A stretch of 64,000 bases of DNA from a virus. Below, piece by piece: positions 108 to 59,952 of this stretch. The notes beneath the pieces are model-generated. The model was not told where the DNA came from. It searched no databases and saw only the letters and a list, made by a program, of their open reading frames with translations. Where the stretch lies: positions 1 through 64,000 of IMG/VR virus record IMGVR_UViG_3300036985_006427; one strand, given 5' to 3'. The position numbers were made by a program, and so were the translations under genes. Every line of letters begins with the position of its first letter. Positions within the stretch are counted from its first letter, which is position 1.

Positions 108-110
108 TAT

Positions 111-596
111 ATGAGAAAATGTCGCAAGTGCAAAATAAATGAAGTTATAGAAACTAGAAAATTCTGCAGTGACTGCAAAATACAATCAAAAAATTGTATA
201 TGTGGTAAAGCATTTAAGTCTAAAAAACATAACTATTGTCCTAGATGTAGAACATCTAAAGGTGACAATGAGAAATGCTATGTTTGCGATGAATTCAGAT
301 TTATTTATGCTCAGGGGTGTTGCACAACCTGCTATAGATTTTTAACTAAATATAAAGTTACACCAAATGAATTACTTGAACTGCGCAAAATTTTAAACTG
401 TCAATTGTGCGGAATTGAGGTGTCTCATCATGTAGGAAATGGAAAGGGCAGAGCTGTGATAGATCACTGTCATGAAACTGGTAACGTCAGGGGGATTTTA
501 TGCAATCATTGTAATATAATTGAAGGAATGATAAGGAACGTTGACCACCTAGAAAATTTCTATAAAAATTATAAAAGATGGGTAGATCATGCCTGA
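111..596 (+). CDS. Endonuclease VII-type (His-Me finger) nuclease with Cys-rich N-terminus; possible homing endonuclease
   Basis: CQLCG...IDHCHETGNVRGILCNHCN Endo VII signature; several N-terminal CxxC pairs. Confidence 0.8.
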   Translation: MRKCRKCKINEVIETRKFCSDCKIQSKNCICGKAFKSKKHNYCPRCRTSKGDNEKCYVCDEFRFIYAQGCCTTCYRFLTKYKVTPNELLELRKILNCQLCGIEVSHHVGNGKGRAVIDHCHETGNVRGILCNHCNIIEGMIRNVDHLENFYKNYKRWVDHA

Positions 597-2889: not shown

Positions 2890-2993
2890 TTAGGATTTCC
2901 GAATTGATTCAAATGAAAATCGTGTTGATGGATTTATCAAAATAACAAGATAAACCTTTTACAAATACGCTCTAAAAATATAGGAAAATACAT

Positions 2994-3731
2994 ATGATTT
3001 TAAAAGATGTTGTGATCCCATTTGGTGGGTCTAATTCACTGAGAACAGCCCAGTCTTATGGAGATGTTATTCGCCAGAAACTTGAGATAATTGCTGACAT
3101 AAAACAGGCGGATTCAATCCGAGACTTTGGAGGGCTCTATATCGTCCACGGGAAATATTTACTAGAAGGCGCGGCGTCGATCAACGCAAAGTACGCACAA
3201 ATGATTGACGTAACCTATCTAGACGAATTTGAGTCTGAGAAACGAAAAGCTCAAGTATCCAGTCCTGACCTTGTCATTGATTTCCTTCAAGGAGATTTCC
3301 GCGAAAAGGAACTCTTTGTCGGAATGAGAACCGTAGACGTTTCCATCCTCTACGAAGTGCTACTACATCAGGATAATGCTGTTGAAGTGATCAGAAACGT
3401 AGCGAGCAAAACGAAAAAGTACATTGTAATTGCGCAACCATGTCTGAAAGAGTCAATTTTCCCGTTGCCCAACTGTTGCGTGAACATTCAAATAATGGAT
3501 GAACAAACAAAGGACGAGCTTCGAGAGGGGAGTTTTTGGCCAAAGGAAGAGCCAACGGAGCGATTCACGACAAAATTTTGGATGTGGGGTCAGACTACAA
3601 CGTACATCGTCTCTGTATTGAAAGGACTTGGCTGGTGCTTGGATGATGGTTTTAACATCGAAGGTATCTGCGGAAAGTATTGGGATTACCCTATTATGCG
3701 TTTTAAGCCAGAGAACCTAAAAAATGATTGA
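2994..3731 (+). CDS. Putative class I SAM-dependent methyltransferase
   Basis: IRDFGG motif I-like; FLQGDF; VDVSILYEVLLHQDN..EVI resembles the post-motif segment of class I methyltransferases. Confidence 0.55.
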   Translation: MILKDVVIPFGGSNSLRTAQSYGDVIRQKLEIIADIKQADSIRDFGGLYIVHGKYLLEGAASINAKYAQMIDVTYLDEFESEKRKAQVSSPDLVIDFLQGDFREKELFVGMRTVDVSILYEVLLHQDNAVEVIRNVASKTKKYIVIAQPCLKESIFPLPNCCVNIQIMDEQTKDELREGSFWPKEEPTERFTTKFWMWGQTTTYIVSVLKGLGWCLDDGFNIEGICGKYWDYPIMRFKPENLKND

Positions 3732-45000: not shown

Positions 45001-48000
45001 TCATCATAGATGTTGATGACCACCCCATTGTTGCCGTATTGCAACGCTCCTTCAGTAGACCCTGTTTGTTCTTTGAAAAGACCAATGATAGCTGGTATTC
45101 CGCTATACACTGAGAATTCAGTAGAACCACTAGGAAACGCTTGGAAGAAAGCGGACTTTACTCCGCTGAGCATTTGATTGAACACAACTGGTCTTCCAGA
45201 AGCTATGAAATTTGCAGGAGATCCTAATCCACCAAGAACCCCTGAACCAGTATCAAGCAGTAATTCTAGGTCATCCAATCTAGGAATGTATTTGTGGACA
45301 AACCATGAAGACTCATCGGTTGGTATAACTGGATAATTTCTATTTGAATGAGTTAATTGTAGTACTATCAACTTAGGGTTGATTTGAGCGTACCATTCGT
45401 TTGGTCCGCTGTTCCAAGGTGCAGAGAAATATTTCCATAGTGTATTAAATTTTTGAGCTGTTGCAGCTACACTTTTCAGCTTTTCTTTTTCGTATTCAAA
45501 TAAGTCTGTAAATATGATTCCTGCCGTTGGAATGCCAGACACAGCAATGTCAGAGAAGCTTCTTGACCACTTGGCTCTTGGGGCACCCACAACCACAATC
45601 TCACGTTCACCACTAGAGCAAATATCTAAGGATTCTCCGAATTTTCTGCCTTCCTGTCCAATCTGCCATTTGTTTCCAGATATAGAGAATTGATCAAATC
45701 TAATTATATTTTCTTCTGTTCTTTGTATGTAATCTTTTCTGAAACCAGATGGTAACATCAACTGTTCAGCGTAAGACCATCCAGCCTTTTTGCCAGCTTG
45801 ATCAGAACCTCTTCTGTACAAGAATACAGATCCAGCTCCAGATACGTTCACTGTAGATTCGTCGTAAGGTGAATAATCTGAGATTGTAATGTTAGGAGCA
45901 GATATAGCCATCAAGTCATTGCTGACACGCACCTGTTGACCGTAATTATCATTTACGTTTCTGCCAGAAGCAGATATTAACTTCACACCTGAGAATACTA
46001 TGTTTTGATCACAATCTTCAGTGCAGCAACCGCTATTGTTTGGATACCAAGCTGGTCCACACATTCCGTATTCCCATTCTTCGAATGTTCTTGGAACAGG
46101 AATAGATTGATTAGAACCAGTTTTAATAACTAGCGTGGTCTTATAAGCAAGCGATGGCAATAGCTGATCAAACTTTCTTATTCCATAGTAATTTCCGCTA
46201 TATCCAAATCCACCTGCGAAATTAATTGCTCCAGAGTTTGTGTACGTATTCTTTGCTCTGAAGATGCCTCCATCATTGCATGTTTCTTGTCTCCACGTAA
46301 TGCCGTCAGTAACCAAAGCTTTATCTATAGCTTTGCTTGGACTGTCTCCTGTGCATGATCCATAACCTATTAAATCTACACCTCTGATTTCATTGTTTGC
46401 AGGCAGAAATGCAACATGATTGTCTGCAAGTTCTATTGGAGATCCATAGCTACTGCTGTTCCATACAGCCAAAGAAGATCCAAAATTAGAGCTATAGTTT
46501 GCTGTTACAAAATTTAGAGATCCAGTCAACAAGGATTTAACCAAAGGATTATGCACATACAAAGGCATAGATTGATTTATAATGTTTGGAGCGTTTATGT
46601 ACAAAGGCATAGAATGTGAGCGTCGTGTGGACACTCCTTGATTATGACCAACAATGGTCAATCCGATCACTCCACTGGCACTGCCTTTTTGTCTGTTCAA
46701 TTGCTGGTTATGTAAAAATAATGGCAATGAAGATAAAACGCCCACGTTTCCAGAAGAAGCGAATAGATTAAGATTTAATACTGGACCTTCTGGTTTACCT
46801 GCCAACTCTATATTGACCAGAGTCAATGGCATACCAAAGAAACTACCAACAGATGTATTTGGGTTTCCGTCATCTGATGTATCGAGCATACCTAAAACTT
46901 TAGGCATAGATAAAGACAAGCCGCTACTCAGCGATGTTGGTAATTCTCCGCTGATATTTAAATTAAAATAGCTGTATCCAGATTGAGGAGGTATAAATAG
47001 ATTCAATGAATTAGATTCAGTGAAAGCTCCACTTACATTCAAGAAAAATCCAGATGGATGATCTACTTCATTGAAGATATTATACGGTATAGGAACCTGA
47101 ACTATCAACGGTAGTATTCCACTGTTTTCTCTTGGGAAACCGCCAATGTTAAGATTGATTTGGCTAGAAGCCGGGAAAGCTCCACTAACATTCATATTGA
47201 ATGTGCCGGAAGAACCCAGTGCCAAAATATTAGCATCTACCATTCTCACATGAGAAGAGTGCATATCTATTCTAGATTCAAATGCTGGTCCAGAAGGATA
47301 AACCAGATCGTATTGAACGAACATTTGATTTACATCGTCTTTGAAATATCTTTCTGAAAAATCTTTTAACCTTGGTTCTTTTGGGAATACAGCCCAAGGC
47401 TCTGTTTCATCGATTAGATCTTCATAATCAAATGTAGATTCTAACTTAACAAAACAGCTAGACGGTTCGATGTAATGAATTTTTCTGTTTACCAATCCCC
47501 AATTCGGCTCTTCTGTTGTCCAATATGGGTCTTGTTTCTTTGTGTACAAGCTAACTATAAACTTTGGACCAGATGGAGCGATTGTTTCACAAGATGGCCA
47601 CTTTATTCCATCTCCAAATTTATGCTCAACAATAGTTTCTACAACGAGGGCTCGTTCAGAAAATTTATATCCAACTGGTATGCTCTTGGTTATTCTTCTG
47701 TTGACTGCGTAAAAATTATCCACAACGTCAGATAAATGAAATCTTAAAAAGTCATTTTCTATCTGAGTATGGTAAGCTACAGTGTTATCCACAGATGTTG
47801 GCAGCGTTATATTTGTCTTGTCTGAATATCCAATGCCATCGCTTTTCAAATTAAAGGAAATCAGATCACGACCTGTGCGTTTTGTCAAGAAGTCAAACGA
47901 AGCGTCAAATTGGCAATATTTAAAGTCACCTACGTGCCAATCATTGTGCGTATCTTCGTCAACGTTTTGCCATAATGTAAATCTATCGTTGGTGTGTGAT

Positions 48001-51000
48001 TCAGAAGGATTCCATAGTTTAACTCTTTGATTTGCTAAAAATACATCTGCACTAGTTTCTTTGAGTTGTAAATCTGGATCTGATTGGACTATTTTACAAC
48101 CAGACGCAAGACCAAACTCACTAACAAACATATTCATGCCAACACCAGAACCAGTAGAAAACCCTACTGTAACATCGCTGTCTCCGACATAGATATCAAA
48201 CGGAGTAGAAGTAGCACGCAATGTATTCCAAGGATAAGCAAATTCGTTGTCTGTATATAATTTTAATTCACTCAAATCCTTATCGTTATAAGTAAGAATA
48301 ACTGCAAGTGGATATTGATATTCTGAATAATGAGCAGTGTCAGTTATTTTAATGATATTTCCAGTTGTGCTCCGAGCTAAACCGCAGAGATAACCGTTTT
48401 CGTAAGATATAGCAAACTCTAATTGTCTTCCTCCATGAGCATTGTGGAGACCCCATTTAGACACAAGTACTCCGCTATTAAATAAATTATAACCAACACC
48501 GCTTACATTTACGTCTGGTGTAAATTTAATATAAGAAACAAATCCATCGGAAGTATCTAAAGAATGATTAAAATCAATATAAGAGTTTTGTCCGCTAATT
48601 CTTACTATGTTGTTAAAAGCATCTGAAATCTGACCGTATAGCTGATCACTTGTAAAATTAGCCGCTCCATTGCTTAAAGACGTCCAGTCGGTAGTTTGGT
48701 AAGAGGTACTATAACCCGGCAACTGATTGTTGAATATTGTAGGGTTAGTAAATCTCCAACCAATGTTTTTATATCTATATTGACCATTACCATAAGTTGT
48801 GTGTAAAACACCGCCATTTCCGGTGTTATTGTGTGGATTTATTGTATGACCATCATCATAATCAAAATCATAAAAACCAAAATTAAATGGAGAATCTAAC
48901 AATGGATTATAGAATGAAAAACCAAACATGTTGGGATGGAAATCCCCTTGTGTTAGACCTTCCATTCCTTTCCATCTTCGAGCGTAGTTGGTTCTTATTG
49001 TATTTGGTGAACCATAAGCATGGGGAATGTTTTGTATTCTAGATATTGGCCCATATCCAGATCCAGCGTTGAGTACGCTATCATAAGATTGCATACCAGA
49101 AGGATACAAAGCGGCTTCAGATCTTCCGTCTTGAGTTTTGCCAAACTTCTCTCCACCCTGAGTGTACAGATTTATAGCATTAGCAGGAGCATATCTCACG
49201 CACAATTCGGCGTATCCAATAGCTGCACCGCTTGGCAATGGGAATATATCAAGGTATACATTTTCTAAGAAAGAGCTAAGACTATAATCTCTAGACAACC
49301 CCAGCTTTACTTTATCGTCAAGTATAACCAAAGGTATTTCATAAAGTTGAAAACCCGTACTGTTAACAACTGGGTATTGAGACAATCTATAATGATCGTT
49401 TCCGCTTGATTCAAAGTAAGTGTCATTTTCAGACAATGAACCACCACCGATTGTTCTGTCTGAATCACCTCGGTAAAATCCAGACAGCACAGGGTAGTTG
49501 CCAATGTTAGAAACGAAAGTGTCATTCAAGAAAATTCCAGATGGATCTTGAATAAATCCGCCAGACGGAGGTGTTACAAACAATAAATCGTCGTTGCTGT
49601 ACCCTACAACGTCCAAGATATAATCTCGGCTACCAACCTGTTTCTTAGCAAGAACTTTGAGTGTTAGAGATTCAACGTTATAAAAACAAATATCTTCTTG
49701 AATATTTTCAATACGTTTTTCTACACTGAATGCTCCAGTTGGTTTCCACCATGTTGTGTTTGTCCCTTGATCAAATGAGAAGTTAAAATCACCATTTGTA
49801 ATTTCATCTACTTTGTTGTATCCGGTTTGAAACTTTAAAATCAACTTTCCAGAATTCGCTATGTTTCCACCGCTGGTTGATTGCAATTTGATGAATCTAT
49901 CGGCATTTTTAACATTCAATATATTTATTAATTCTTTAGAGCCACAAACGTCTTGATTTGTTGCTCCTATTGGATATCCAGCAGTTATCGTTGTGTCATC
50001 TGCCCATACATTGTTGTTGACAGAAGGATAAATGGTTGTATCGTACGTATTGATAGCTATGAACGTTGGATTGATGCTTCTCTCTAGCCTTCGTCCAATT
50101 TCTCTCACAGGTATGCGGAATGGTAAATAATTCTCTAACCTTGGACCATACCCGCCACTGTTGCAAATTTCTACTGCTGATATTCTGAATCCTCTGGTAG
50201 GATTTATAAATCTTGTTTCATTGCTTGATAAAGGTTGTCCATCAATCGCCAAGTAGCTGTTGCCATTGTTGCTAAGTATCTCTGGAATAATATAATTTTC
50301 TTCAAAACCATCATCGAAACCCTTGTTGAAGGGATCGTCTAATGAGACAGCTCTTACGCTAAAAGACAATTGATATCCACTCACCTTATGCATATGAGGA
50401 ATGGTTCGCTGCCAGTCGTATTTTTCATTTATAACATTTATTTGAGGAAGAGATGAATACGTAGTAAAGTTAGAGTATTCTTCTGTGGAATCGCCTCTCA
50501 TCTGAATGTCATTGTATTTAACTATCAAATTTCCAGATGGGTCAGATAATTTAATGTTATATAATGTATACAGGGGTGGAAGTTTAGACTCATAATTATA
50601 CAGAGGTGTTGCTACTCTTATTCTAAAAGAAGAGCGTTCAGGTCTGACATACATATCAGTAAGTTCGCACTTGTACTGAAAAAGACCCTCTGTATGAAAA
50701 GTGTTTGGTTCAATGTAGGAGTTTTTGTCATCAGACAATAAGTTGGAATCTCCACGATCTTTCAAGACGCCTTCATAAATACCTTCATCTATATTGGACC
50801 ATAAGTTTGTTGACTCTAAAGACGGTCCAGCAAAAGTTCCAAACCCACTGTCTATCGGCAGATCGTTTGATGGATACAGTTTGCCTTGACAGTAAAAGTC
50901 CCCAAAATCACCCGCTACCTTGTCTGTTATTGTGTTTATGATATTAGCTTCGCCGGTTATCACTTGTGACAATACATAGCTAGCCTTGATGCTGTTGAGA

Positions 51001-51569
51001 ATATCTGACGAACCTATGATTTCTGACACAAGGCTTATGTAAGAACTAAAAATAGTTGATATGTCAGCTACACCAACAATACTTGCTCCTCCAACAGACT
51101 TAGCGGTCACCATGTTCGGAGCGGTGGCGTTAGCGTATCCAAAAACACTTGGATCTACAGCAGGAGGATTGCTCAGCAAGCCAAGGTTTGGACCGTCATA
51201 AAAAAATAAAACTGATCCATTTTCGAATTTTTGGATCACATTGGATGAAATCTTGACAAACTGATTTGGAGAAACTTCATACGACAACTCTATATTCCAG
51301 CCTTCATCGATAAGATCTTTGTACTGACAGGTGTTTGCAGAACATCCAGATAGAGTGTATAATGGTCCACTTCCAGCCAATGAATTTTTATCGAAATAAA
51401 CAATTATTTGCTGTGGAGGCGCTGCTATTTTAGAAAACGTATTGAATGAGGCTGATAAAGCAGCTTCATTGAGTGTCATTGTAGCAAGAAGCTCACCTCC
51501 TCCGGGACAGGTGGCTGAGGTTCCTTTTATACAACAACATTCCAAACTCTTCAAGAACGGTTCTGACAT
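39093..51569 (-). CDS. Giant virion/adhesin protein (4158 aa) with a LamG-like domain and seven FG-GAP repeats
   Basis: FG..V/L...GAP...G.VY/AF repeats; LamG-like segment at about 48100-48600; directly after the TMP. Confidence 0.75.
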   Translation of the reverse strand: MSEPFLKSLECCCIKGTSATCPGGGELLATMTLNEAALSASFNTFSKIAAPPQQIIVYFDKNSLAGSGPLYTLSGCSANTCQYKDLIDEGWNIELSYEVSPNQFVKISSNVIQKFENGSVLFFYDGPNLGLLSNPPAVDPSVFGYANATAPNMVTAKSVGGASIVGVADISTIFSSYISLVSEIIGSSDILNSIKASYVLSQVITGEANIINTITDKVAGDFGDFYCQGKLYPSNDLPIDSGFGTFAGPSLESTNLWSNIDEGIYEGVLKDRGDSNLLSDDKNSYIEPNTFHTEGLFQYKCELTDMYVRPERSSFRIRVATPLYNYESKLPPLYTLYNIKLSDPSGNLIVKYNDIQMRGDSTEEYSNFTTYSSLPQINVINEKYDWQRTIPHMHKVSGYQLSFSVRAVSLDDPFNKGFDDGFEENYIIPEILSNNGNSYLAIDGQPLSSNETRFINPTRGFRISAVEICNSGGYGPRLENYLPFRIPVREIGRRLERSINPTFIAINTYDTTIYPSVNNNVWADDTTITAGYPIGATNQDVCGSKELINILNVKNADRFIKLQSTSGGNIANSGKLILKFQTGYNKVDEITNGDFNFSFDQGTNTTWWKPTGAFSVEKRIENIQEDICFYNVESLTLKVLAKKQVGSRDYILDVVGYSNDDLLFVTPPSGGFIQDPSGIFLNDTFVSNIGNYPVLSGFYRGDSDRTIGGGSLSENDTYFESSGNDHYRLSQYPVVNSTGFQLYEIPLVILDDKVKLGLSRDYSLSSFLENVYLDIFPLPSGAAIGYAELCVRYAPANAINLYTQGGEKFGKTQDGRSEAALYPSGMQSYDSVLNAGSGYGPISRIQNIPHAYGSPNTIRTNYARRWKGMEGLTQGDFHPNMFGFSFYNPLLDSPFNFGFYDFDYDDGHTINPHNNTGNGGVLHTTYGNGQYRYKNIGWRFTNPTIFNNQLPGYSTSYQTTDWTSLSNGAANFTSDQLYGQISDAFNNIVRISGQNSYIDFNHSLDTSDGFVSYIKFTPDVNVSGVGYNLFNSGVLVSKWGLHNAHGGRQLEFAISYENGYLCGLARSTTGNIIKITDTAHYSEYQYPLAVILTYNDKDLSELKLYTDNEFAYPWNTLRATSTPFDIYVGDSDVTVGFSTGSGVGMNMFVSEFGLASGCKIVQSDPDLQLKETSADVFLANQRVKLWNPSESHTNDRFTLWQNVDEDTHNDWHVGDFKYCQFDASFDFLTKRTGRDLISFNLKSDGIGYSDKTNITLPTSVDNTVAYHTQIENDFLRFHLSDVVDNFYAVNRRITKSIPVGYKFSERALVVETIVEHKFGDGIKWPSCETIAPSGPKFIVSLYTKKQDPYWTTEEPNWGLVNRKIHYIEPSSCFVKLESTFDYEDLIDETEPWAVFPKEPRLKDFSERYFKDDVNQMFVQYDLVYPSGPAFESRIDMHSSHVRMVDANILALGSSGTFNMNVSGAFPASSQINLNIGGFPRENSGILPLIVQVPIPYNIFNEVDHPSGFFLNVSGAFTESNSLNLFIPPQSGYSYFNLNISGELPTSLSSGLSLSMPKVLGMLDTSDDGNPNTSVGSFFGMPLTLVNIELAGKPEGPVLNLNLFASSGNVGVLSSLPLFLHNQQLNRQKGSASGVIGLTIVGHNQGVSTRRSHSMPLYINAPNIINQSMPLYVHNPLVKSLLTGSLNFVTANYSSNFGSSLAVWNSSSYGSPIELADNHVAFLPANNEIRGVDLIGYGSCTGDSPSKAIDKALVTDGITWRQETCNDGGIFRAKNTYTNSGAINFAGGFGYSGNYYGIRKFDQLLPSLAYKTTLVIKTGSNQSIPVPRTFEEWEYGMCGPAWYPNNSGCCTEDCDQNIVFSGVKLISASGRNVNDNYGQQVRVSNDLMAISAPNITISDYSPYDESTVNVSGAGSVFLYRRGSDQAGKKAGWSYAEQLMLPSGFRKDYIQRTEENIIRFDQFSISGNKWQIGQEGRKFGESLDICSSGEREIVVVGAPRAKWSRSFSDIAVSGIPTAGIIFTDLFEYEKEKLKSVAATAQKFNTLWKYFSAPWNSGPNEWYAQINPKLIVLQLTHSNRNYPVIPTDESSWFVHKYIPRLDDLELLLDTGSGVLGGLGSPANFIASGRPVVFNQMLSGVKSAFFQAFPSGSTEFSVYSGIPAIIGLFKEQTGSTEGALQYGNNGVVINIYDEFEKFYLAHSYASGVKDLVQNIAQSGHLNKITGESETWDTTCKQLFENTFDSGRLSAGYTNTTLNRNFIASGVGQEWGSTHGSVVTEFQVPPASGGRVYIFEKERNTFNCIQVIVSPNDKLEFNFDSMDGLGSIYSKTYNDRFGHAVSISKNGEVVAVGSPWNDKSCNIFERNEKEAQKVYDNIRSWCVSTNKPQAVSHYDSIASQSGQAIAKVSTYDFIQSSERFEYRNDINFWGTLPTPYKMTYQYGHNDIQYLGTRQFLPSTFASTSRLGWSCAVDQDGETVAFGAPTDCFNEFEDANVWGDNILSWASYTNAGAVRVFQNRKYYPHNKVVEFGRFGNLDRSSHPEERALGYYDNSNWPLIFASGSNGTIGYQGKSWRRTDFSEIEIPRDAGLAFIVTPELDAASDEIIQNIKDWLSLGDRNLVIVGNDPVWEEDGLYEDSNKIVNKILEKLGSRMRIHPARNVEYSAQGCISQQDVSSNKYNATKSFLPDRSTGRTIEHHGEYYIKGVGDIRIDLSRDNLDEFFENLNCPEGATCGDGPAPIINSKCEFPLKGIVGDLRAQWKEQCVKTTPKTCSVVSYYKNWPLQFQNFTIDCDSPPQSLFNKSNEEPVPVLTTAEHLPPTSWYDPATSGLIWDTFQPQVYKVNKQFEEKISFAANNINELAFHIMENGPSVVSGNFNSFYYNGDMFDPALENGRDGLMQAAGKILSEAVDVTETVYPDQIVALVESGRKPDGSFNNSRIYVLATQWSEDDASRGLSYATLNKDKNTEFYINMIRKDCLYAPKGLQINGFTGRTSLKNAYDSSGNSASGHNLANKLNVEFFPDGGFFTENSEMRYVNGSIDFVWLAFPSGKPSSEDLMTLNDWLDFGNKKIIITYSAVKDSTAQEISDNITYLCSGLRMTSKPMYLPKLGKYYLSDKLSRYTENDNKQLINYATDSISGCDDGYHFTYPSYKTSTSLSGIDFHPNTATISVASQSEEFSYASRTNFVPLSGGQDFERILSFLPEIKQTYKVYGAKNTWQINGAGAVTFPILPGSGYRVWINWVSESPDEKFKICANHSGNLIFDTPVGLPSFACGSVGELTKTTTYIPQETIFEFRTESNSNIDEFGITFQTSKWSSFIDVKELEGISLPPKTPRMLSISGALLPIITEINAITTSGLINDGLPVQFNFRYAVNPAASGVVPGVSRPVKHKSSIYCDENNFTTDECISASESWAEELIEDGPVIVAEEFENFSSFQNGKRRSKIILIADSTLLQGQCPHYRSTTITGNQSFVRNLYPPSPNDTGETINIGNGAGRLQSGGVYDTALIKEGRNWELSQKLRAPERGSPAKYAAVSGQAIGATLIPSRLWGGNGVAGNLNNYSDNEDTYDPTTLSRPPELKTSEEMEQRSKSFFNDEVITKYGMYPRFSGDFLDIVTYNGGIYTDYDILLGLDKNSNRSFIVDAGIGGGLNELMKIANADYLDYDLFNSGCPGDLFGYSVAIDNGKIIVGTPYNAFHSEGAISGVSGIVQWHEIKNDATRSGIRIGADGGAGAAFIFEKTNNGKNVIEEFLPWEFKQKIKPNSINVGIYDFSPTPSQKLTSLRGPHQINDSSFISEYARRGDRFGFSVDIAYDMAVVGAPNHSFETLHHHIYSGSTAFQRKSFDAKFDIPKHSFYDLADSGIRVNTFGNNSGTMTLNNGAVYNYRNEMVNFNERTQRWIFAEKMLAVGYKSRVQTALTTGILAASGSDNDNFGASVCIDRPLRGDSDYTLIAGSPNHDWPTSGDHPTKGLNNAGAAYTFDCVLRQQIPSIQNSGGWIDAHVFGNKQESGSTDRVGLRVYQNSSGDSLEYVVSGIVFSNKNGDIFLEASGFDPSTKGFVAHRPYIDNIKFELFPGTEINNSFNLITSGRPVAMSGDMNLSLLGPDRANVYNTLGLYNFGVLGIASGENPSGLSLFISAPSGQSSESLNLSLTSTQTTNALNLRVRGY

Positions 51570-51573
51570 TTTG

Positions 51574-54500
51574 TTAACCTAATACAGAGTTAGTTTTCTT
51601 TAAATCACCGGATGTGTTTGTCTTAAACTGCGATATTTGTTTTCCTACTTCGGTCAACAATTCTTGCTTTATGTCTTCTTTCATTGTTTCTAAGAAAGAA
51701 GCTCCATTAAAGTTAACATTGATATTCGTTGTATCTAAAGCTACTTGGAATTTACTTCCTATAAGCTTGTCTACGGTCGCAGCGAAATTATTGAATATAG
51801 TTGTTAACTGTGGTATCGCTGCACTGAATGCGCTGCCTACACCATCTACCGCTCCTCCAACGTTATAATATCGAGCTTTACCTCCACCGCTCATTGCTCC
51901 GGGAGCACTCGCTCCACCACCTTTGTTCATAGCTTGTAGTATCTGTAAATTATTGCCACGTTGAACTGACGATCTGTTGACCACAAATTCTCCCGGAGTC
52001 AACATAGCCGGAACGGTATCTGTTCCACGCGGAACGAACATTCCTCTGTTCGCATAAACTGGACCTCCTCTGTAAAGACCCGGAGGAGCAGGTGCCGCAG
52101 CAGGTGCTTGAGCTGGAGCAGCAGCAGCGCCACCTAAAGCTTGGTTTAATTGTTTGCCAATGTCTCCAATTGTAAGTTCTTGAGCATAAACAATTGCTTG
52201 TTTAGTATTAACTTCTGCTCTTTCAAATTCGGCTGCTTGTTGACCAAGTTGACCAAGTGTTGTCGCTAATTCTCTACCTTCAGCTTTCTTAGCTTGCTCT
52301 TCGGTTGTTGTGCCAGATAGTACACCCGTTGATTGAACTCCGAAACGTTGCAGCGTTAAATCTTCTGCTCTTCTTTTTTTATCATCCGATAAGCCTTGTC
52401 CCTCAAGGGTTTTGAAACCAGCTCCCAACGCTGAACCACTAAACAAACTAGTCAAAGCAGAGCTTCCGCTCGCTAGTGCAGCACCAGCTCCAGCAGCCGC
52501 TTGTTTTTCTAAAAACCCTTCTATGTCACCGCTTATGAGTGATTCGAGAGAATCCTTTTCTGCTTGATTTTTTCTTTGAATTAATTGAAGTTCTTCTTTT
52601 CTAGCTTCAATTTCTTGTTTTGTTTGTGAGATTAAATCTTGTTGTAACGCTTTCAGTCTTTCTCTAGTGTCTTCTTCCGCTCCAGCGCCACCAGAAAAAG
52701 CTCTTTCTCCAGACACTGCGCCAGCTCTAGCTCTTTCTTCTAGTTGTAAGAATTGATTGCTAATATCAGCGGATACGCTTTGAATATCACCAGCGTTGCC
52801 AGTTTGAAGACCACGCACACCAACAGCCTCAGCGCCAACATTGAAGCTTGCAACTCTAGCTTGTTGTTTTTCGCCTGCTGTTAAAGCTTTACCACCAAAC
52901 TCTTCAAAGATCTTGCCAGCCTCTAGTTGTAATTCTATAGCCCTTCTTTGTGCTGCTACATATTCTTGTTCAGATGCTATACGTTGTTGAATTCCCTTGA
53001 TCAGTAATTGCTCTGCCTCTGAGCGTTTTTGAAGAACACCAAGAACTTCTTTGTTGAATGCATCACTAGTTTTTTGCAATGCTTCTCTTAATGGACCAAA
53101 ATTTCCAGCTTGAATTTCAGCAAGATCTTCTCCGTTAAACTTAGAGCTTGCTTCGTCAAGACCAGCATTAATTCTTGTTGCCACTTCAGGATCTAATCCG
53201 GCGGTCAATTCTTCACTGAGTATCCTTGATATTTCTTGTGGAGTTGCTCCCGCCGGTCCTTTTTCCGTTAATTTCTTTTGTATGTTTGCAAAAGAATCTG
53301 AATCTTTATTTAGTCTAGAAAAGGCAGTGTTGAAACCTTTAGCTGCACCACTCGCGTTACCTATGGCAGCCTCACTAGCTCCAGCTTCACGCAAAGTACC
53401 TTCTAGTGTTGCAATGGCTCCATCTAATTCCTTTGCTGACAAAGTGCCAGCAGCGCTAGTCAATGCGGTCTGTAAGATATCTAATGAATCACCAAACTTA
53501 TCTCCAACCTGATCTATAGTTAATAATTTCGATAATTTTTTGTTTGTAGCATCCAATGAATCAGAAAGTGTTCCAAGGCCAAAGTTAGTAGCTTTGATAA
53601 GAGCTAATTGTCTTATGGCTTGCTCTTTAGCGGCTTTCAAAGACTGTTTACCAGCTTCTTCTCTTTGTTTTTCAAATCCTCTAATTTTAATTTCTTGTTG
53701 TTCAAGATCTGAAAATACTCTGGCTCCCGGTCCTTGTGATTGCTGCACATTTGCGTCAATTCTAGCTTGCTCTGCTGGAGAAAATTGTGAAGTAGTAGCA
53801 GCTTTAAATGCTGAATTATCGGTAACAGTCCTTTCAGCTTCGTCCGCCGTTGCTCCTCTCATGATCTGATCCGCAAGAACATTACCAAACATTGGTAATT
53901 GTTCCATAAATGCAGTAGTAGCTTTTTCTTGGTCTGGAATTTGTTCTTTCAAAGCTTCGGCTCTTTTTTTGTCGTTAGACTTATCCAATTGCCCCTGAAG
54001 CATACTGCCAACCAAAGCACCCAAAGGACCAGCAATAGCTAATCCAGCCATAGTTGAGGCTCCTTCCAGAGCCCAGAATGAATTATTAACATCTTCAATT
54101 CTTGAATTGCTCAAAGCTATGGATTGTGCAAGAACACCAAACTCATTGTTTAAATTACCAGTTAAATTGCCTTTCGTAAATTCATCGGTTAAAGTGCTAG
54201 ATCCAGACTCTACACGTTGCATAGCCATAGCGACATCGTTGGCGTTTTTAGAAGCTTCGTTTTCCTGTTTCTTTCTGGCGGCAGCTAATCTAGCTTCTTG
54301 TTTAACTGTATCTGTACTTGGACCTAATCCAAAGAATGCTAAAGTTTTTCTAAAGGCATTTAATGGTCCTTCTAACAGCCCAAACGCATCAGCTAATTTA
54401 AGACCAATCGCAACAATACCAATCGTAACACCAACTAGCACACCTAATGGTCCACTGACAGCAATTAAAACACCAGCTAAAATTCCAAGAGCTATAGTTA

Positions 54501-57500
54501 CTTTATTTACTATGTTAGAATTTGCAGACGCTACAGCCGTTTCTCCAGCTTTTGCGACATTGCCTTGCTCAATAGCCTTTTTAGCTTTTTCATGCACGCC
54601 TGTTAAAGAATCAACAGCTTTAGTTAAAGCAAAAGCAGCTATACCGCCAGCAGCAAACCCAGCAATCAATGGACCAAGTACTGGACCAGAACGGGCAAGT
54701 ACTTTACCTAGCTGTGGACCTAATTTAGTTAGTTGGGAGCCGAATTTACCTAATCGACCCGGAAATTTTTCTAATATCTCTCCTGCTTTTTTAACTCCGC
54801 TTTCCAAACCACTGTTCTTGGCTCCAACTTGTAAGCCAGCACCTACTCTGGAAGATTTACCACGGAAGAATTGACCAATGTCTTTCAGTCCTGCTGCGTT
54901 TAATTTTAGACCAAAAGCTTGAGCAGCAGCAGCAGCACCAAGTAATCCTGCAAGAAGTGTTTGCAAACCACCCACTAACCCATCGGCAAATTTTGCAAGA
55001 GCGCTGCTATTTTCATCAATTTGTGGTTTTAAATAACCTAAGCCGCCAATAACAGCAGACACCCCAACAGATAACTTCAGAAGGTAATCATCATCTTTTT
55101 TTCGTGTTTTACCTGTTGGTGGACTAGTTGGAGATGTTCCTGTGCCAGTTCCAGCGTTTGGACTAGTCGGACTAACTGGAGGACAAGGACACACCGGAGG
55201 AACTACTTGAGGAGTTGCTGCGGGTAGACTAGTTGGATACCCTAGCCCTCCCGGTTTTGGATTGGTAGTTGCTGCGGGTGGAATAATGACTGGAGGTTTT
55301 ACCGTAGTCATTGCCGGGTTTCGTCTTTGCACTGAACTTGGCTTCTTGCCTAAGGCTAATTTAGCTGCATTTTCTTGAACTCCAGCAGCCTTGATAGCTT
55401 GAGCGTTTGTCTGTAATTCTGCTGTGACCTTATCTCTAATTTCCTTTCCTCTTTTTAAAGATTCTTCTTCTCGCTGTAAAGCAGCGTTTGTATCTTTTAG
55501 ATTTTTATCCATCACTGTGGATTCTTTCAGAAGATCATTCAGCTTTTTCGCATGCTCATCTTGAGCCTTCCTGTGGGTTCGTAAAGCCTTTTTATATTCG
55601 TTTAAATCTTTCTCGACCGATTCTTTGCTATCACCAAAATCCTTGAAACCATTTGGACCAGATTTTTTTCTAAGAGCAAGTTTACGTTCTTCAATTTTTG
55701 CTTTAATTTCTGCTTCATTTAATGGTTTCGAGGAACCTCTAACATCAACAGTAGTTTTAAGATCTTTTACTGAAGTTAGATCGGCAAATTCCTTTGTTTT
55801 TAAATCTATAGCGGATTCTTGTTCAGCCTTCTTTGCTTTTAAAGAGCCGACAGTAATCTCTTTTTTGGATATGCTTGATGAGATACCAACCTGTTGTCTT
55901 TGTAAATTACCCCTATCTTTTTGCAAATTTTGTCTAGTTACTTTTGCTGCATCTCTCATAGCTTCAAGCTCTGCTTTAGTAGGAGACACTGGAAGAACTG
56001 CCGGAGTAGTAGCCACTGGAGGTGCTGCAGTAACTGGCGGAGTAGTAGCCACTGGAAGAACTGCCGGAGTAGTAGCCACTGGAGGTGCTGCAGTAACTGG
56101 CGGAGTAGTAGCCACTGGAGGAACTGCCGGAGTAGTATCCACTGGAGGTGCTGCAGTAACTGGCGGAGTAGTAGCCACTGGAGGTGCTGGTACAGCAGCT
56201 TCTGGTGCAGGAGGTTCTGGCTGTTTAGGAGTTGGAGTTCCTAAAAATTCAGCAGCTTTCTTTTCTTTTACGTTAGCCTCTTGTGTGAGTTTAGCGTTTT
56301 TCTCTAAGTTAGACTGAAGCTTATCTCTAATTCTAATCGAACTATTTAAACTATCCTGTTCTCGCTTTAAAGAATCTGCTGTCTTTTTTAACGAGTCTTT
56401 GAGATCTGTTTCTTGTTCTTCAAGCTTCTTGGTTTGTAAATGAGCAGAAGCCATATCTTTAGCCAAAGATTGAAGATTACCTTTTAATAGTTCTAAATCC
56501 TTTGTTACAAAATCTCTACCTCCAAGGAGTTCAAGCTCACCAGAATCTCCGTTAAGAGCAGATTCACGTTTCTTAATTTCACTTTTTATATTGACAGAGG
56601 TTTGTACGTCGGACTTTCTTTTCCTCTTATTCACATAAATGTCATCACTCACTGACGTCAGAGTAGATATTTGTTCATTCCTCTGAGCATCTAAAGCGTT
56701 TATATTACCTTGTTTTTCAGTTATGTCACCAGAAACATGAGCCTGACCGCTTTTTAACCCATCTCGTTTCTTTTCTAATTCTGCTCTAGTTTCGATTGCC
56801 GCTTTGTGAATAGCTTCAACGTCTGATGTTAAATCCTCTGCAGATAATCCAGCAAAACCTTCACCACTCTTTTTTAACTCCTCGGCCATCGCAATCATAG
56901 CTAATTCAGCGTCACCAGTACTTGCTAATATAGATTGTGCAGCAGTATTAGAGCCTGCAAACAAATTAGCAAAAACTTCTCTGTTTTGACCAGCATAGTT
57001 TTCAATAAAATTTAAACTAGCACCAGTCTTTTTCATAGACGTTACAAGAGCTTGAGTTATTTTATCTGTTATTTGCTTTTGAAAAGTACCTTCTTTTTCG
57101 CTAGCATAACCAGAACCTCCTCCACCAATCTTGTCTCCAGCAGCAACATCCACTAAATGACCAACCTCATGATCTATTGTTCCTGTTGTTGCTTTATCCT
57201 TGGCTGTCTTAACTTGAAATACACGCTCATTTTTGTCGTTTCCACCAGCTCTAAACTGACCGTAGGATGAACCACCATCAATATTGTCAACAATCCCACT
57301 TTTGTACTCTTCAGTACCTTGACCCTTTTCAATTCCGTCTAATATTGCTTTCTTTATATCTTCTGGTAGATGATTCGTTACTTTTTTGAATGCCTTACCG
57401 AAATCTTCGGCGGTCTTTACTTTATCTTTTCCACCAACCCGTGCTCGCACGATATCTTTAGCAGCTTCGTCAGTCGCTAGACCTCCAACTTCAAAACGAT

Positions 57501-59952
57501 TCCAACCGCCTCCAACCGAACCGCCCTTGGCGAATTTAGCAACACCCTGCTTGTTCATTCGGTTAAGGTTTCCATAACCGATACGCTGTGCAGAGCTTTT
57601 GTTCACAACAAACTCACCGGGAGTCAGCAAAGCTGGAACCGTGTCTGTTCCAGCAGAACCTCCTTCAGCGAATTTAGCAACACGCGAACCAGATGTGGAA
57701 CCTCCAGACGCTTTCTTTGAAGTATTTGTCGCTTTAGGTTGAATTTGTATATTTTTGAAAGTAGATTCATATAAATCTGAAGCTAATTGATTTTTTATCT
57801 TTTTGTGAAATTCTGCTGGTGCAATATTACTGTTACTTGAGCCAGCAGACACTTTAGCGTCAATATACTTGATATTTTTCAATGCCTTGAATAAATTCCC
57901 AGAGTTTATACCGCCGGTAAAGTCAAATGGTCTATTTTCTTCTTTAGCTTCAACAGCAATTGGCTGACCATTGAAAGCATCAACAACATCTTCAAATAAA
58001 TTACCTTTTTGAGCTTGAGCTAACTTATATTGCGGAGAAAATCTAACTTCATCCCCTTTTAATTTAACGCCAGCGAAGTTTCCAAATTTATTTACTACAG
58101 ATTTTATTAAAACTTTAGATTCTTCGTTTACGATATCATCGAAATTAATCTTTTGCTCATATCCAATACCTTCTGCTAATGTAGAATATGTTTTTTGTTC
58201 AAATTGAAGTTGTTTTCGTGCTATATTTTTTATGTCGTCGGTGGACATATTTCCAGAACTGCCGTATATGTCTTCGATTGATAATGATCTTAGTCCACCA
58301 AATCCAGTTCTTGTCTTTATAATATCATCAATAGATACTATAGCTTTTCCAACTTTTGGTTCGAGTTCTGGATTTATTATATCTGGAACTGCAATTCCGA
58401 CAGAACTTTCTTGAGCTATTCCTCCAGTAGCATATCTATGCTCATTCATCGCCGCCAATTTATCAGCACCAATTTTATTGACGCTGCTCTTGCGGATTAC
58501 GAATTCTCCGGGAGTGAGCATAGCCGGAACGGTGTCTTGATTTCCAACACCCGGAACAGAACCTCCTCGTGCAAAACCTAATATTCGTCCACCATCATTT
58601 TTACCCAACGTTCCCAATCCACGAATAGCAGCTCCAGCGCCAGAGGCGAAAGAACCTAGGCCCTTAGCGAATTTAAATGCAGCCATAGCAGCAATAAGAG
58701 GAACAAGCGGTTTAATAGCATCAGCGACTTTGATTAACGCACTAGCAACTTCTAAAGCTGTACGAGCAAAAAGCTGAAAAGATGTGCTTTCGGCAATACT
58801 ACGAACTAAAGCTAAAAATTCTTCTTTGACTTTAGTGATTTGAACCGCTAAGGCTTGCTGTGCAGTAGCGGCATCCTTAGTCAATGAACCACTACCGGAT
58901 TGCGCGACATTGAGAGCATTTTGAGCTACAGAAAACTGCTGTAGTAAAGGAATGACTTTACCAATTTGTCTAAAACCACCGAGTTCTTCAGCTACTCTAA
59001 TAAATTTAATATCACCCTCTTCTAATCCAGATAATGCTTGTGCTAATCGTTTAGAAGCTTCGAATGGTCCAACAAATTTACCCTCCAAATCCAATAGTTC
59101 AACGCCATATTGACGTAAGAACTCAATTGTCTGGGGTCTTTGAATACGTGTAAAGATCGTTCTCAAGCCAGTGGCAATACTTTCAGCACTTTCACGAGTT
59201 GTGGCTCGAACCGATGTAAATAGAGCTAATAGTTCTTCTAAACTACCGCCAGAAGCTTTAAAAACACCACCAAATCTGCGAACAGCACTGATTAAGTCTT
59301 CAGCTTCAACGGCAAACGCTCCAGCAACAGCGTTAACAGAGCCAAGCTGTGCTTCTAAAGCACCAACACCTTGTCCAAACTGAGCTAAAATAGCAACAGC
59401 ACCCTCGGCAGTTTCTGTGATGCTATCGAAGTTTGGAGCAAGAGTTGTTTTAGCAAGAGCCTCAAGGGCCACTTTTAAGTCGTCTGCACCAATACCAGCT
59501 TGTGCTAATATAGTTGCTGTACTTAATAAGTCTTTACTAGAAGTGCCAAGGCCGACAGATAGTCTAGTTATTGTGTCTGTTAGGTCTCTTAATTCACCTA
59601 TTGACTTACCTGTAACTTGAGAAACTTTAATGACTTCCCTTTGGAAAGCGATAGATTCATCTATTGCGCCAGCTAAAGAATTTGTAAACAAACTGACTGC
59701 ACGACTTGCAATCGTAAAAGCTGCAAATCTTTTTATAGCCAAACCAAAAGATCTACCCATAGCATCAGCGGCAGAAGAAGCTCTCTGTGTTGCCGCTGTT
59801 AATTGGTTTATCTGTTTGGTGGCAGATCCAGCGGCTTTGATAGACACTGGAATGTTAACGCCCTGAAGTTGTTGATTTATTTGCTGTACAACTTGAGAGG
59901 CGTTGTTTGGAGCTTGCAATTGAATTTGTGCAGTGAGTACAAATTTAGCCAT
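51574..59952 (-). CDS. Tail tape measure protein (2792 aa) with inserted domains
   Basis: TP901-type core (KVSQVTG, VNAVAGAFAVEAEDL, SIATGLRTIFTRI); Ala/Gly-rich helices; hydrophobic TM-like segments; FAxGG..DTVPA motifs. Confidence 0.9.
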   Translation of the reverse strand: MAKFVLTAQIQLQAPNNASQVVQQINQQLQGVNIPVSIKAAGSATKQINQLTAATQRASSAADAMGRSFGLAIKRFAAFTIASRAVSLFTNSLAGAIDESIAFQREVIKVSQVTGKSIGELRDLTDTITRLSVGLGTSSKDLLSTATILAQAGIGADDLKVALEALAKTTLAPNFDSITETAEGAVAILAQFGQGVGALEAQLGSVNAVAGAFAVEAEDLISAVRRFGGVFKASGGSLEELLALFTSVRATTRESAESIATGLRTIFTRIQRPQTIEFLRQYGVELLDLEGKFVGPFEASKRLAQALSGLEEGDIKFIRVAEELGGFRQIGKVIPLLQQFSVAQNALNVAQSGSGSLTKDAATAQQALAVQITKVKEEFLALVRSIAESTSFQLFARTALEVASALIKVADAIKPLVPLIAAMAAFKFAKGLGSFASGAGAAIRGLGTLGKNDGGRILGFARGGSVPGVGNQDTVPAMLTPGEFVIRKSSVNKIGADKLAAMNEHRYATGGIAQESSVGIAVPDIINPELEPKVGKAIVSIDDIIKTRTGFGGLRSLSIEDIYGSSGNMSTDDIKNIARKQLQFEQKTYSTLAEGIGYEQKINFDDIVNEESKVLIKSVVNKFGNFAGVKLKGDEVRFSPQYKLAQAQKGNLFEDVVDAFNGQPIAVEAKEENRPFDFTGGINSGNLFKALKNIKYIDAKVSAGSSNSNIAPAEFHKKIKNQLASDLYESTFKNIQIQPKATNTSKKASGGSTSGSRVAKFAEGGSAGTDTVPALLTPGEFVVNKSSAQRIGYGNLNRMNKQGVAKFAKGGSVGGGWNRFEVGGLATDEAAKDIVRARVGGKDKVKTAEDFGKAFKKVTNHLPEDIKKAILDGIEKGQGTEEYKSGIVDNIDGGSSYGQFRAGGNDKNERVFQVKTAKDKATTGTIDHEVGHLVDVAAGDKIGGGGSGYASEKEGTFQKQITDKITQALVTSMKKTGASLNFIENYAGQNREVFANLFAGSNTAAQSILASTGDAELAMIAMAEELKKSGEGFAGLSAEDLTSDVEAIHKAAIETRAELEKKRDGLKSGQAHVSGDITEKQGNINALDAQRNEQISTLTSVSDDIYVNKRKRKSDVQTSVNIKSEIKKRESALNGDSGELELLGGRDFVTKDLELLKGNLQSLAKDMASAHLQTKKLEEQETDLKDSLKKTADSLKREQDSLNSSIRIRDKLQSNLEKNAKLTQEANVKEKKAAEFLGTPTPKQPEPPAPEAAVPAPPVATTPPVTAAPPVDTTPAVPPVATTPPVTAAPPVATTPAVLPVATTPPVTAAPPVATTPAVLPVSPTKAELEAMRDAAKVTRQNLQKDRGNLQRQQVGISSSISKKEITVGSLKAKKAEQESAIDLKTKEFADLTSVKDLKTTVDVRGSSKPLNEAEIKAKIEERKLALRKKSGPNGFKDFGDSKESVEKDLNEYKKALRTHRKAQDEHAKKLNDLLKESTVMDKNLKDTNAALQREEESLKRGKEIRDKVTAELQTNAQAIKAAGVQENAAKLALGKKPSSVQRRNPAMTTVKPPVIIPPAATTNPKPGGLGYPTSLPAATPQVVPPVCPCPPVSPTSPNAGTGTGTSPTSPPTGKTRKKDDDYLLKLSVGVSAVIGGLGYLKPQIDENSSALAKFADGLVGGLQTLLAGLLGAAAAAQAFGLKLNAAGLKDIGQFFRGKSSRVGAGLQVGAKNSGLESGVKKAGEILEKFPGRLGKFGSQLTKLGPQLGKVLARSGPVLGPLIAGFAAGGIAAFALTKAVDSLTGVHEKAKKAIEQGNVAKAGETAVASANSNIVNKVTIALGILAGVLIAVSGPLGVLVGVTIGIVAIGLKLADAFGLLEGPLNAFRKTLAFFGLGPSTDTVKQEARLAAARKKQENEASKNANDVAMAMQRVESGSSTLTDEFTKGNLTGNLNNEFGVLAQSIALSNSRIEDVNNSFWALEGASTMAGLAIAGPLGALVGSMLQGQLDKSNDKKRAEALKEQIPDQEKATTAFMEQLPMFGNVLADQIMRGATADEAERTVTDNSAFKAATTSQFSPAEQARIDANVQQSQGPGARVFSDLEQQEIKIRGFEKQREEAGKQSLKAAKEQAIRQLALIKATNFGLGTLSDSLDATNKKLSKLLTIDQVGDKFGDSLDILQTALTSAAGTLSAKELDGAIATLEGTLREAGASEAAIGNASGAAKGFNTAFSRLNKDSDSFANIQKKLTEKGPAGATPQEISRILSEELTAGLDPEVATRINAGLDEASSKFNGEDLAEIQAGNFGPLREALQKTSDAFNKEVLGVLQKRSEAEQLLIKGIQQRIASEQEYVAAQRRAIELQLEAGKIFEEFGGKALTAGEKQQARVASFNVGAEAVGVRGLQTGNAGDIQSVSADISNQFLQLEERARAGAVSGERAFSGGAGAEEDTRERLKALQQDLISQTKQEIEARKEELQLIQRKNQAEKDSLESLISGDIEGFLEKQAAAGAGAALASGSSALTSLFSGSALGAGFKTLEGQGLSDDKKRRAEDLTLQRFGVQSTGVLSGTTTEEQAKKAEGRELATTLGQLGQQAAEFERAEVNTKQAIVYAQELTIGDIGKQLNQALGGAAAAPAQAPAAAPAPPGLYRGGPVYANRGMFVPRGTDTVPAMLTPGEFVVNRSSVQRGNNLQILQAMNKGGGASAPGAMSGGGKARYYNVGGAVDGVGSAFSAAIPQLTTIFNNFAATVDKLIGSKFQVALDTTNINVNFNGASFLETMKEDIKQELLTEVGKQISQFKTNTSGDLKKTNSVLG
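55987..56189. repeat. 63-bp in-frame tandem repeat (about 3.2 copies) encoding VATTPPVTAAPPVATTPAV(L/P)P in the TMP
   Basis: Units start at 55987, 56050, 56113 and 56176. Confidence 0.95.

Follow-up and report, generated by a model that had tools for sequence, protein, structure and literature searches.

A repeated protein module marks the joints of domain exchange in a phage tape measure protein

The first 64,000 nucleotides of IMG/VR virus record IMGVR_UViG_3300036985_006427 (referred to here as the window; the source record is 110 kb long and ~66% complete) come from an uncultured marine phage and contain a gene for a giant tape measure protein (TMP) of 2792 amino acids (aa), which carries three copies of a ~60-residue sequence module. 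Comparison of this protein with its relatives showed that the module edges are joints of domain exchange, and that the zones after modules 1 and 2 (zones A and B, occupied in this protein by cassettes A and B) are swapped without regard to one another or to the backbone. TMPs are ejected into the host during infection. On balance, we consider it probable that the protein is a modular TMP, in which a module conserved at the protein level marks the edges of exchangeable domains and acts as a cargo handle for their delivery at ejection.

The TMP gene is a single uninterrupted open reading frame (ORF) on the minus strand (window 51574-59952). PF10145 (PhageMin_Tail) matched aa 128-312 with a score of 80.2 bits (gathering cut-off 33.2), and the PHROG families matched were phrog_4211 (E 3e-28), phrog_28 and phrog_167, all of which are annotated as 'tail length tape measure protein'. 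After the TMP gene come giant ORFs, one of 4158 aa with FG-GAP repeats and then two of 1695 and 1403 aa. Taken together, the Pfam and PHROG matches and the giant downstream ORFs identify the ORF, at the level of sequence, as the TP901-type TMP of a large long-tailed phage.

The motif DTVPA[ML]LTPGEFV is present in exact form at aa 473-485, 770-782 and 2645-2657 of the TMP (window 58498-58536, 57607-57645 and 51982-52020). An earlier note on this DNA, made from its letters, had reported three copies, and the exact motif was found inside all three of the ranges it gave. The motif is the core of a ~60-residue module, comprised of an [FY]AxGG flank, a short Gly-rich loop (x6-12), the core DTVPA(M/L)LTPGEFV (written DTVPAMLTPGEFV in copy 1 and DTVPALLTPGEFV in copy 2), a stretch of ~25 residues that closes with (M/I)N, and another [FY]AxGG flank. 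The additional partial copies that had been listed are real and represent the [FY]AxGG-type flanks belonging to each module (FARGG 460, YATGG 507, FAEGG 761, FAKGG 807, FEVGG 820 and YRGG 2627). A profile hidden Markov model (HMM) built from 464 distinct module copies in relatives delimited the modules to aa 450-520, 751-819 and 2626-2698, with scores of 77-91 bits. In this marine phage family the three copies hold fixed places: the first follows the N-terminal domain, the second follows cassette A, and the third lies ~95 residues from the C-terminus. No Pfam family covered the module in an analysis of 48 copies, and literature searches on the motif (GEFV) and on TMP cassettes or hypervariability found no description of the module in the library searched.

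A search with the N-terminal 520 residues returned >3000 relatives, of which 120 were retrieved (1847-4416 aa), some of them marine (Tara). The homologue sets described here are samples (120 of >3000 proteins, 80 loci), and the identity fractions were calculated from summed BLAST segments. Exactly three modules were present in 110 of the 120 relatives, and seven in one. Across the 110 three-module proteins, the length of the N-terminal domain had a standard deviation of 2 aa and that of the tail after module 3 a standard deviation of 9 aa; the zone between modules 1 and 2 ranged from 212 to 936 aa, and the distance from module 2 to module 3 from 825 to 1807 aa. The distance from the anchor motif and hydrophobic region to module 3 was near constant in the relatives (912-963 aa). 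Length variation was confined to the zones after modules 1 and 2. The mean identity was ~70% in the N-terminal domain, 43% in the C-terminal tail and 26% in the long helical part. No BLAST hit was obtained for zone A in 64% of pairs, or for the 235 aa after module 2 in 79% of pairs; this fixed 235-aa zone-B window overstates non-homology, as many pairs differ only by Gly-run offsets or by the absence of an insert, and the variation in zone B was re-expressed as length and content between module 2 and the conserved hydrophobic region.

The nucleotide identity of the window to its closest relatives (L002-L004) was 92-99% up to aa 510, ~42% with many indels over aa 511-~760, and 96% over aa 781-1050, and in the comparison with L003 the breaks in identity were located at module edges. 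The expectation that the segments between modules vary among homologues while their flanks are conserved was thus borne out, with L003 showing these values. In 261 pairs of proteins with an N-terminal identity of at least 90%, zone A was unrelated in 61% and the sequence after module 2 was unrelated in 76%. Zones A and B were discordant: the identity fractions were 0.99 (A) and 0.23 (B) in P0072/P0096, 0.25 and 0.97 in P0106/P0108, and 0.98 and 0.07 in P0063/P0114, and P0114/P0115 combined an N-terminal identity of 1.00 with a zone A identity of 0.00. An alternative is that the variation of cassette A arises in place, through rapid divergence driven by diversifying selection or by a mutator (for example a diversity-generating retroelement), and not by exchange. 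Such a process would be consistent with all A cassettes forming one homologous family with a common conserved core; however, flanks of near-identical nucleotide sequence abut a cassette of ~42% identity with many indels, and identical A alleles occur in different backbones as well as the reverse (P0063/P0114 and P0114/P0115); on these comparisons of identity and alleles, this explanation is highly improbable.

The breakpoints of exchange were located with a 12-residue window. In 56 pairs with the same backbone and a different A, similarity was lost 26-36 residues past the start of the module-1 core, that is, at the C-terminal [FY]AxGG, and returned 0-15 residues before the module-2 core. The breaks in these 56 independent near-identical pairs cluster within ~10 residues of module edges. 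After module 2, similarity was lost 36-55 residues past the core in most of 63 pairs. Given the clustering of breakpoints in both sets of pairs (56 + 63), the module edges are the joints of domain exchange. Recombinants joined elsewhere than at the module have presumably been lost.

The proposal of the earlier note that the motif serves as a recombination joint therefore stands with respect to the position of the breakpoints and the independent assortment of the zones, but not as a joint at the level of DNA. At residues identical to the window, the codon identity in 20 relatives was ~0.40 for module 1, as against ~0.45 for the N-terminal domain. By this synonymous-site test a DNA-level joint was rejected, the codon identity of the module being no higher than that of the N-terminal domain, and the lack of raised codon identity indicates that selection on the protein is what maintains the module. 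The 16-bp direct repeat GCGAATTTAGCAACAC, which had also been pointed out, is present at 57530-57545 and 57668-57683; by our own estimate, chance alone would give ~0.008 exact 16-mer repeats in 8.4 kb. The 16-bp repeat belongs to a 35-nucleotide repeat (83% identity), encodes VAKFA(K/E)GG on both sides of module 2, and is not kept in the closest relative, which has RYAKGG and ARFAKGG at these positions. As the repeat encodes a repeated peptide and is not conserved, it is explained as a by-product of that peptide and was rejected as a signal.

A separate observation was made in one relative (L005:5966-7507), in which the codon identity to the window was 0.55 in the N-terminal domain and 0.96 in module 1. 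From its sequence, the module-1 DNA of this relative resembles a tract that was exchanged recently and that ends in the module.

The possibility that the module is a DNA-level recombination signal (a recombinase site or selected nucleotide homology) would fit the breakpoints at module edges, the 16-bp direct repeat around module 2 and the near-identical module-1 DNA of L005. Against this, the 20 other relatives showed no such excess of codon identity, the three core DNA copies within the gene are 79-87% identical over 39 nucleotides, the 16-bp repeat is absent from the nearest relative, and the peptide is conserved out to phages lambda and Douge, where the DNA is unrelated. This possibility is largely refuted, and we assign it very little weight.

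Both cassettes were modelled with AlphaFold2 (AF2). The claim that non-TMP globular domains follow copies 1 and 2 was supported, as both segments gave folded, non-helical models; in place of invariant segments of plain helical TMP structure, folded and variable ones were found. The model of cassette A (aa 505-765; mean predicted local distance difference test (pLDDT) score of 69.6) showed a mixed alpha/beta domain. All A zones link into one family by transitive similarity, with a core of the form G..FE-x(~20)-(F)D(F)-x(~20)-DAK, in which conservation of the G, E and D reaches at least 90% across 44 sequences (those with N-terminal domains ~40-80% identical to that of the window). Clustering at 50% identity divided the A zones into 66 groups, and the 108 backbones that carry them fall into a single cluster at 70% N-terminal identity. 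No match was found for the cassette A model by Foldseek against the PDB at E<=0.001, and the best score in a wide VIA-align search was Z 4.2, on one helix pair. There was no usable ESM Atlas hit, and the PDB profile search was empty. A PD-(D/E)xK nuclease was considered and found no support: the E/D/DAK pattern is suggestive, but the AF2 model contains no alpha-beta-beta-beta core of that type and there was no nuclease match. Cassette A is, as judged from sequence, one homologous, extremely diverged and hyper-allelic family with no recognised fold or function. It behaves like an arms-race locus.

The model of cassette B (aa 822-1050, folded from an alignment of 10 rows) had a pLDDT of 82.3 and a predicted template modelling score (pTM) of 0.84. 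The best VIA-align match was the protease domain of anthrax lethal factor (1yqy_A; Z 8.1, root-mean-square deviation 4.3, 153 aligned), followed by PPEP-3 (9g0j_A; Z 6.7) and PPEP-2 (6fpc_A; Z 6.6); these Z values are moderate, and the other matches listed were mostly zinc metallopeptidases. Foldseek gave probabilities of 0.8-0.94 against M34 structures. The HEVGH sequence at aa 928-932 lies within helix 102-121 of the model. Residues H928, E929, H932, D935 and E992 are invariant in 40 of 40 distinct cassette B homologues, and Glu992, which lies within N-x-E-x-F-A and 60 residues from the His, is the putative third zinc ligand. The model indicates a zincin metallopeptidase-like domain with an intact HExxH...E. 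PF10145 was the only Pfam family matched by the whole TMP at E<=1, and a PDB profile search with cassette B returned no peptidase.

The M34 peptidases (lethal factor, PPEP-2/3) are the closest structural matches of cassette B and share its HExxH with a downstream Glu. In the M34 family, the spacing from His to Glu is ~43-45 residues. In contrast, cassette B has a spacing of 60, an invariant Asp three residues after the second His, and no sequence-level match to the family. Cassette B thus resembles M34 in its predicted fold and is not a member of the family.

The cassette B domain was present in only 39 proteins among 1.84 billion representatives searched, mostly giants of 1700-5991 aa, and a search for related loci with the B domain identified one new locus only. 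In these 39 proteins the absolute position of the domain ranged from 60 to 3224. It started no more than ~10 aa from the end of a module in approximately half of the mapped cases, and tens of residues after a module in the remainder. Among the 108 three-module relatives analysed, 7 carry cassette B, which makes it an optional insert. Most relatives run from module 2 straight into the linker and hydrophobic region with nothing globular between, indicating that module 2 needs no cargo behind it.

Other domains behind modules were rare. P0079 (3018 aa) carries an ADP-ribosyltransferase domain (ADPrib_exo_Tox, PF03496) at 1067-1276, with a score of 28.5 bits (cut-off 23.4), in an enlarged zone between modules. 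Pfam analysis of 133 post-module segments of 300 aa identified EF-hand in two, the ADP-ribosyltransferase in one, Gly-zipper in one, and nothing in the rest. The suggestion that the modules bound swappable effector domains is accordingly upheld in part. Enzyme-like cargo does occur (the zincin-like cassette B, the ADP-ribosyltransferase of P0079 and a glucosaminidase in cyanomyovirus S-SCSM1, described below), but cassette A is one diverged family and not a series of unrelated domains, and in most relatives module 2 is followed by no globular domain.

The module was also identified outside this family. A search of PDB sequences with a profile of 48 module copies matched lambda gpH (8iyk_H) at 732-785 (E 2.3e-6), the mycobacteriophage Douge TMP gp16 twice, at 962-1028 and 1411-1471 (E 2e-15), and the TMP of Pseudomonas phage JBD30 at 1017-1078 (E 0.003); there was no match to T5. 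On sequence grounds, the module is ancient and widespread. The earlier note had stated that the motif usually occurs once, near the C-terminus of a TMP; this holds for lambda gpH (732-785 of 853) and JBD30 (1017-1078 of 1158), but Douge has two copies. In the available electron cryo-microscopy maps only residues 818-849 of lambda gpH and 1658-1699 of the Douge protein are resolved, and the module stretches are not (PMC10721106, PMC13033339).

The module of lambda gpH reads HFATGG...GEFVFTKEATSRIGVGNL...YATGG and stands at the same position relative to the C-terminus as copy 3. It lies just upstream of the C-terminal docking helix, in the Gly-rich region of the cut that converts gpH to gpH* and gpHC. 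Unlike the window TMP, which is of the TP901/PhageMin_Tail type, lambda gpH has one copy, no embedded domains, and the core EPAGIVHRGEFV in place of DTVPAMLTPGEFV. Douge gp16 resembles the window TMP in having more than one copy of the same module. Mycobacteriophage TMPs are reported to contain small embedded peptidoglycan-hydrolase motifs that aid infection (PMC1796659); published work on these proteins (TM4 gp17 and Douge gp16) describes no delimiting module of the kind seen in the window TMP.

Two cultured cyanophages also carry the module. In cyanomyovirus S-SCSM1 (MK867354.2, L091:2177-5029), gp213 (950 aa) has the module at aa 591-656 (61 bits), with a Glucosaminidase domain (PF01832) right after it at 697-816. 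This virion protein is annotated 'lysozyme', and its gene adjoins those of the baseplate hub in a T4-like cyanomyovirus, so the module extends beyond siphovirus TMPs. As in the window TMP, an enzyme domain stands directly behind the module; the differences are the contractile tail, the shorter protein with a single module, and a cargo that is a known wall hydrolase. In Nodularia phage vB_NpeS-2AV2 (KU230356.1, L090:6022-16236), the TMP of 3404 aa has tandem modules at aa 978-1060 and 1071-1125, and Pfam identified no domain in it. In the library of 1.84 billion proteins, TMP-like proteins of 4000-6000 aa (P0122-P0133; up to 5991) carried 2-5 modules, and P0123 had two HExxH sites. We know of no described tail that corresponds to TMP-like proteins of this size.

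A function of the module in assembly could also account for its conservation. In this alternative, the module is only an assembly or docking element (a binding site for chaperone, tube or hub, or a hinge), the TMP remains one uncut chain with tolerated inserts, and the exchange of the variable zones is a by-product of selection for intact domain boundaries. The conservation of the module as protein and not as DNA agrees with this, as do the C-terminal copy, positioned as in lambda next to the docking helix (PMC10721106), the many relatives with no globular domain after module 2, and the documentation of TMP cleavage for lambda and T5 only (PMC12617516). However, the first two copies lie 2100-2300 residues from the tip, far from any hub, and docking alone can hardly explain why enzyme domains immediately follow modules in backbones that are unrelated and in a virion protein of a myovirus. 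We consider an assembly role of this kind alone to be rather unlikely.

Returning to the module as a cargo handle, we propose that it would have a protein function of its own, most likely as a handle and/or a cleavage point. The domain downstream would travel within the tail lumen in an unfolded or loosely folded state until ejection of the TMP sets it free, as for the T5 pb2C peptidase, and the cargo would act on the host envelope or in the host cell at the start of infection. If the module is both needed and invariant, only recombinants joining within or at it would survive, making it a de facto joint.

Cleavage at the modules, making the TMP a polyprotein, is plausible by analogy with the homologous region of lambda gpH and with T5 pb2. 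Lambda gpH sheds a ~14-kDa C-terminal piece 'from the glycine-rich region', with neither the cut site nor the protease established (PMC12617516), and T5 pb2 is cut between a hydrophobic stretch and the peptidase domain, releasing pb2C (bioRxiv 10.1101/2022.09.20.507954). In a stronger version, each module would be a site at which the TMP is cut during tail assembly, by self-cleavage or a tail protease, in the same event that converts gpH to gpH*. The module would then be a general 'cargo handle and release' signal, and the TMP polyprotein would load separate exchangeable enzymes or effectors for injection before the DNA: a protease, an ADP-ribosyltransferase, a wall hydrolase, and cassette A as a host-specific or counter-defence factor. 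This combined version is possible and, in our view, doubtful. A JAB/MPN protease cutting after GG, a lead suggested by lambda gpK, was considered as the enzyme and rejected; PF14464 had no match in the 110-kb record (~66% complete), and the neighbouring genes had no Pfam or PHROG match.

Known systems resemble parts of this proposal. T5 pb2 (pb2* and pb2C) is the best precedent for a TMP as a polyprotein with enzyme cargo, in that the TMP is cut during assembly and its C-terminal enzyme domain, once separated, later enters the host envelope; it differs from the window TMP in having one C-terminal cargo, and no family-wide exchange of cassettes has been described for it. The TMP of Thermus phage P23-45 is fused to the virion RNA polymerase (bioRxiv 10.1101/2022.12.01.518664), and the TMP-related Sle1 effectors of actinobacterial contractile injection systems have interchangeable functional domains (PMC13277306). 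In both, as would be the case for the window TMP, a TMP or TMP-like scaffold delivers a functional domain into or onto the target cell. Unlike the window TMP, they have one cargo at one end and no reported repeated delimiter module, and no sequence relation to them was found.

The cargo could act at either of two sites. The glucosaminidase and the TMP precedents point to the envelope, and the ADP-ribosyltransferase and the M34-like fold to the cell interior. It is quite possible, if not what we would expect, that the cassettes are envelope-breaching enzymes (peptidoglycan or surface-layer hydrolases) and not cytoplasmic effectors, with a diversity that tracks the diversity of host cell walls. 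The same module precedes the glucosaminidase of S-SCSM1 gp213, T5 pb2C and the mycobacteriophage TMP motifs are muralytic (bioRxiv 10.1101/2022.09.20.507954; PMC1796659), and the predicted fold of cassette B is peptidase-like. However, the exoenzyme-type ADP-ribosyltransferase of P0079 would need NAD+ and a protein or nucleic-acid target inside the cell, cassette B is closest to M34 endopeptidases and not to muramidases or to M23/M15 wall peptidases, and cassette A has no hydrolase signature.

Several points weigh against a module that serves as a handle for delivered cargo. The cleavage, ejection and enzyme activity of the window TMP are predictions from sequence, models and analogy. In lambda, the module lies inside gpHC (~690-853), and the cut, which is unmapped, may fall N-terminal to the module and not in it. 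The search for a protease candidate was negative, with no JAB domain found in the 110-kb record (~66% complete). The globular domains of a trimeric or hexameric TMP would have to fit a lumen of ~4 nm. Cassette A has no recognisable fold or family, so that its label as an effector is a guess, and the absence of anything globular behind module 2 in most relatives counts here too.

TMPs with embedded wall hydrolases, a TMP-fused RNA polymerase, TMP-like interchangeable effectors, and the processing of the lambda and T5 TMPs are already known. The literature search found no description of the delimiter module, of a very large phage family in which it is present three times at set positions, of the strict coincidence of exchange breakpoints with module edges, or of the hyper-allelic cassette A. 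How TMPs gain cargo and where lambda gpH is cut are standing questions on which the locus bears. The locus and its >3000 relatives suggest a simple rule, in which one ancient 60-residue module marks the places of domain exchange, and siphovirus TMPs, as well as one myovirus virion protein, have enzyme domains directly after it. The exchange pattern suggests how such phages may swap enzymes injected ahead of the DNA. The module could serve as a sequence signature by which injected phage proteins are recognised in metagenomes, and could provide a concrete candidate for the processing region of lambda gpH and a natural design rule for placing cargo in tail-lumen proteins.

The features of the TMP gene are listed in Table 1. 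The C-terminal helices resolved in the lambda, T5 and Douge proteins (PMC10721106, PMC13033339) suggest, by analogy, that the C-terminal tail would dock in the tail tip.

Table 1. Features of the tape measure protein gene, with positions in the window
Feature	Position	Strand	Basis or remark
TMP gene, 2792 aa	51574..59952	-	one open frame; PF10145, phrog_4211
N-terminal TMP domain, aa 1-449	58606..59952	-	~70% mean identity in 108 relatives; length standard deviation 2 aa
Module copy 1, aa 450-520, FARGG...DTVPAMLTPGEFV...YATGG	58393..58605	-	module HMM 86.5 bits
Cassette A, aa 521-750, hypervariable folded domain	57703..58392	-	replaced in L002/L003/L004; AF2 model
Cassette A conserved core, G..FE / FDF / DAK	about aa 650-700	-	conservation of G, E and D at least 90% (44 sequences)
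Module copy 2, aa 751-819, FAEGG...DTVPALLTPGEFV...FAKGG	57496..57702	-	module HMM 91.4 bits; contains both 16-bp repeats
Cassette B, aa 822-1050, zincin metallopeptidase-like	56803..57489	-	AF2 model, VIA-align, invariant residues
Cassette B HEVGH, aa 928-932	57157-57171	-	
Cassette B invariant Glu992	56977-56979	-	
Coiled-coil unit 1, aa ~1043-1238	56239..56826	-	paralogue of unit 2; gap in L002/L003 alignment
63-bp tandem repeat, 3.3 copies, Pro/Thr/Val-rich linker	55978..56189	-	Tandem Repeats Finder, 97% matches
Coiled-coil unit 2, aa ~1327-1535	55348..55974	-	paralogy with unit 1
Gly/Ala-rich hydrophobic stretches, aa ~1620-1880, candidate membrane-inserting part	54313..55095	-	read from translation; conserved in relatives
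Long, mostly helical ruler-like region, aa 1881-2625	52078..54312	-	strongly conserved with L002
Module copy 3, aa 2626-2698	51859..52077	-	module HMM 77 bits; positional counterpart of lambda gpH 732-785
C-terminal tail, aa 2699-2792	51577..51858	-	length 84-135 aa in 110 relatives

The genes neighbouring the TMP gene had no Pfam or PHROG match, and among the upstream genes no family match pointed to tube or chaperone genes. The 4158-aa ORF lies directly downstream of the TMP gene (window 39093-51569, minus strand), and its sole Pfam match was to FG-GAP repeats (E 6e-22). The next ORFs, of 581, 178, 1695 and 1403 aa, had no family match. The 4158-aa ORF and those after it probably encode tip or fibre proteins of unusual size.

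The two ~200-aa coiled-coil units of the window TMP are 31% identical (E 1e-15) and represent a duplication in this protein. The closest relatives L002 and L003 (95% identical) have a single coiled-coil unit, with unit 1 aligned to a gap. The window TMP has the longest span from module 2 to module 3 among the 110 three-module proteins because of the extra coiled-coil unit and the 63-bp tandem repeat. A longer tail would be expected if the duplicated coiled-coil and linker part counts for the ruler. The TMP linkers are indel-prone. In L003, an 18-residue tandem duplication (NPKPGGLGYPTSPPAAT) was observed in the second Pro-rich linker, around window aa 1563; it is present in neither the window nor L002.

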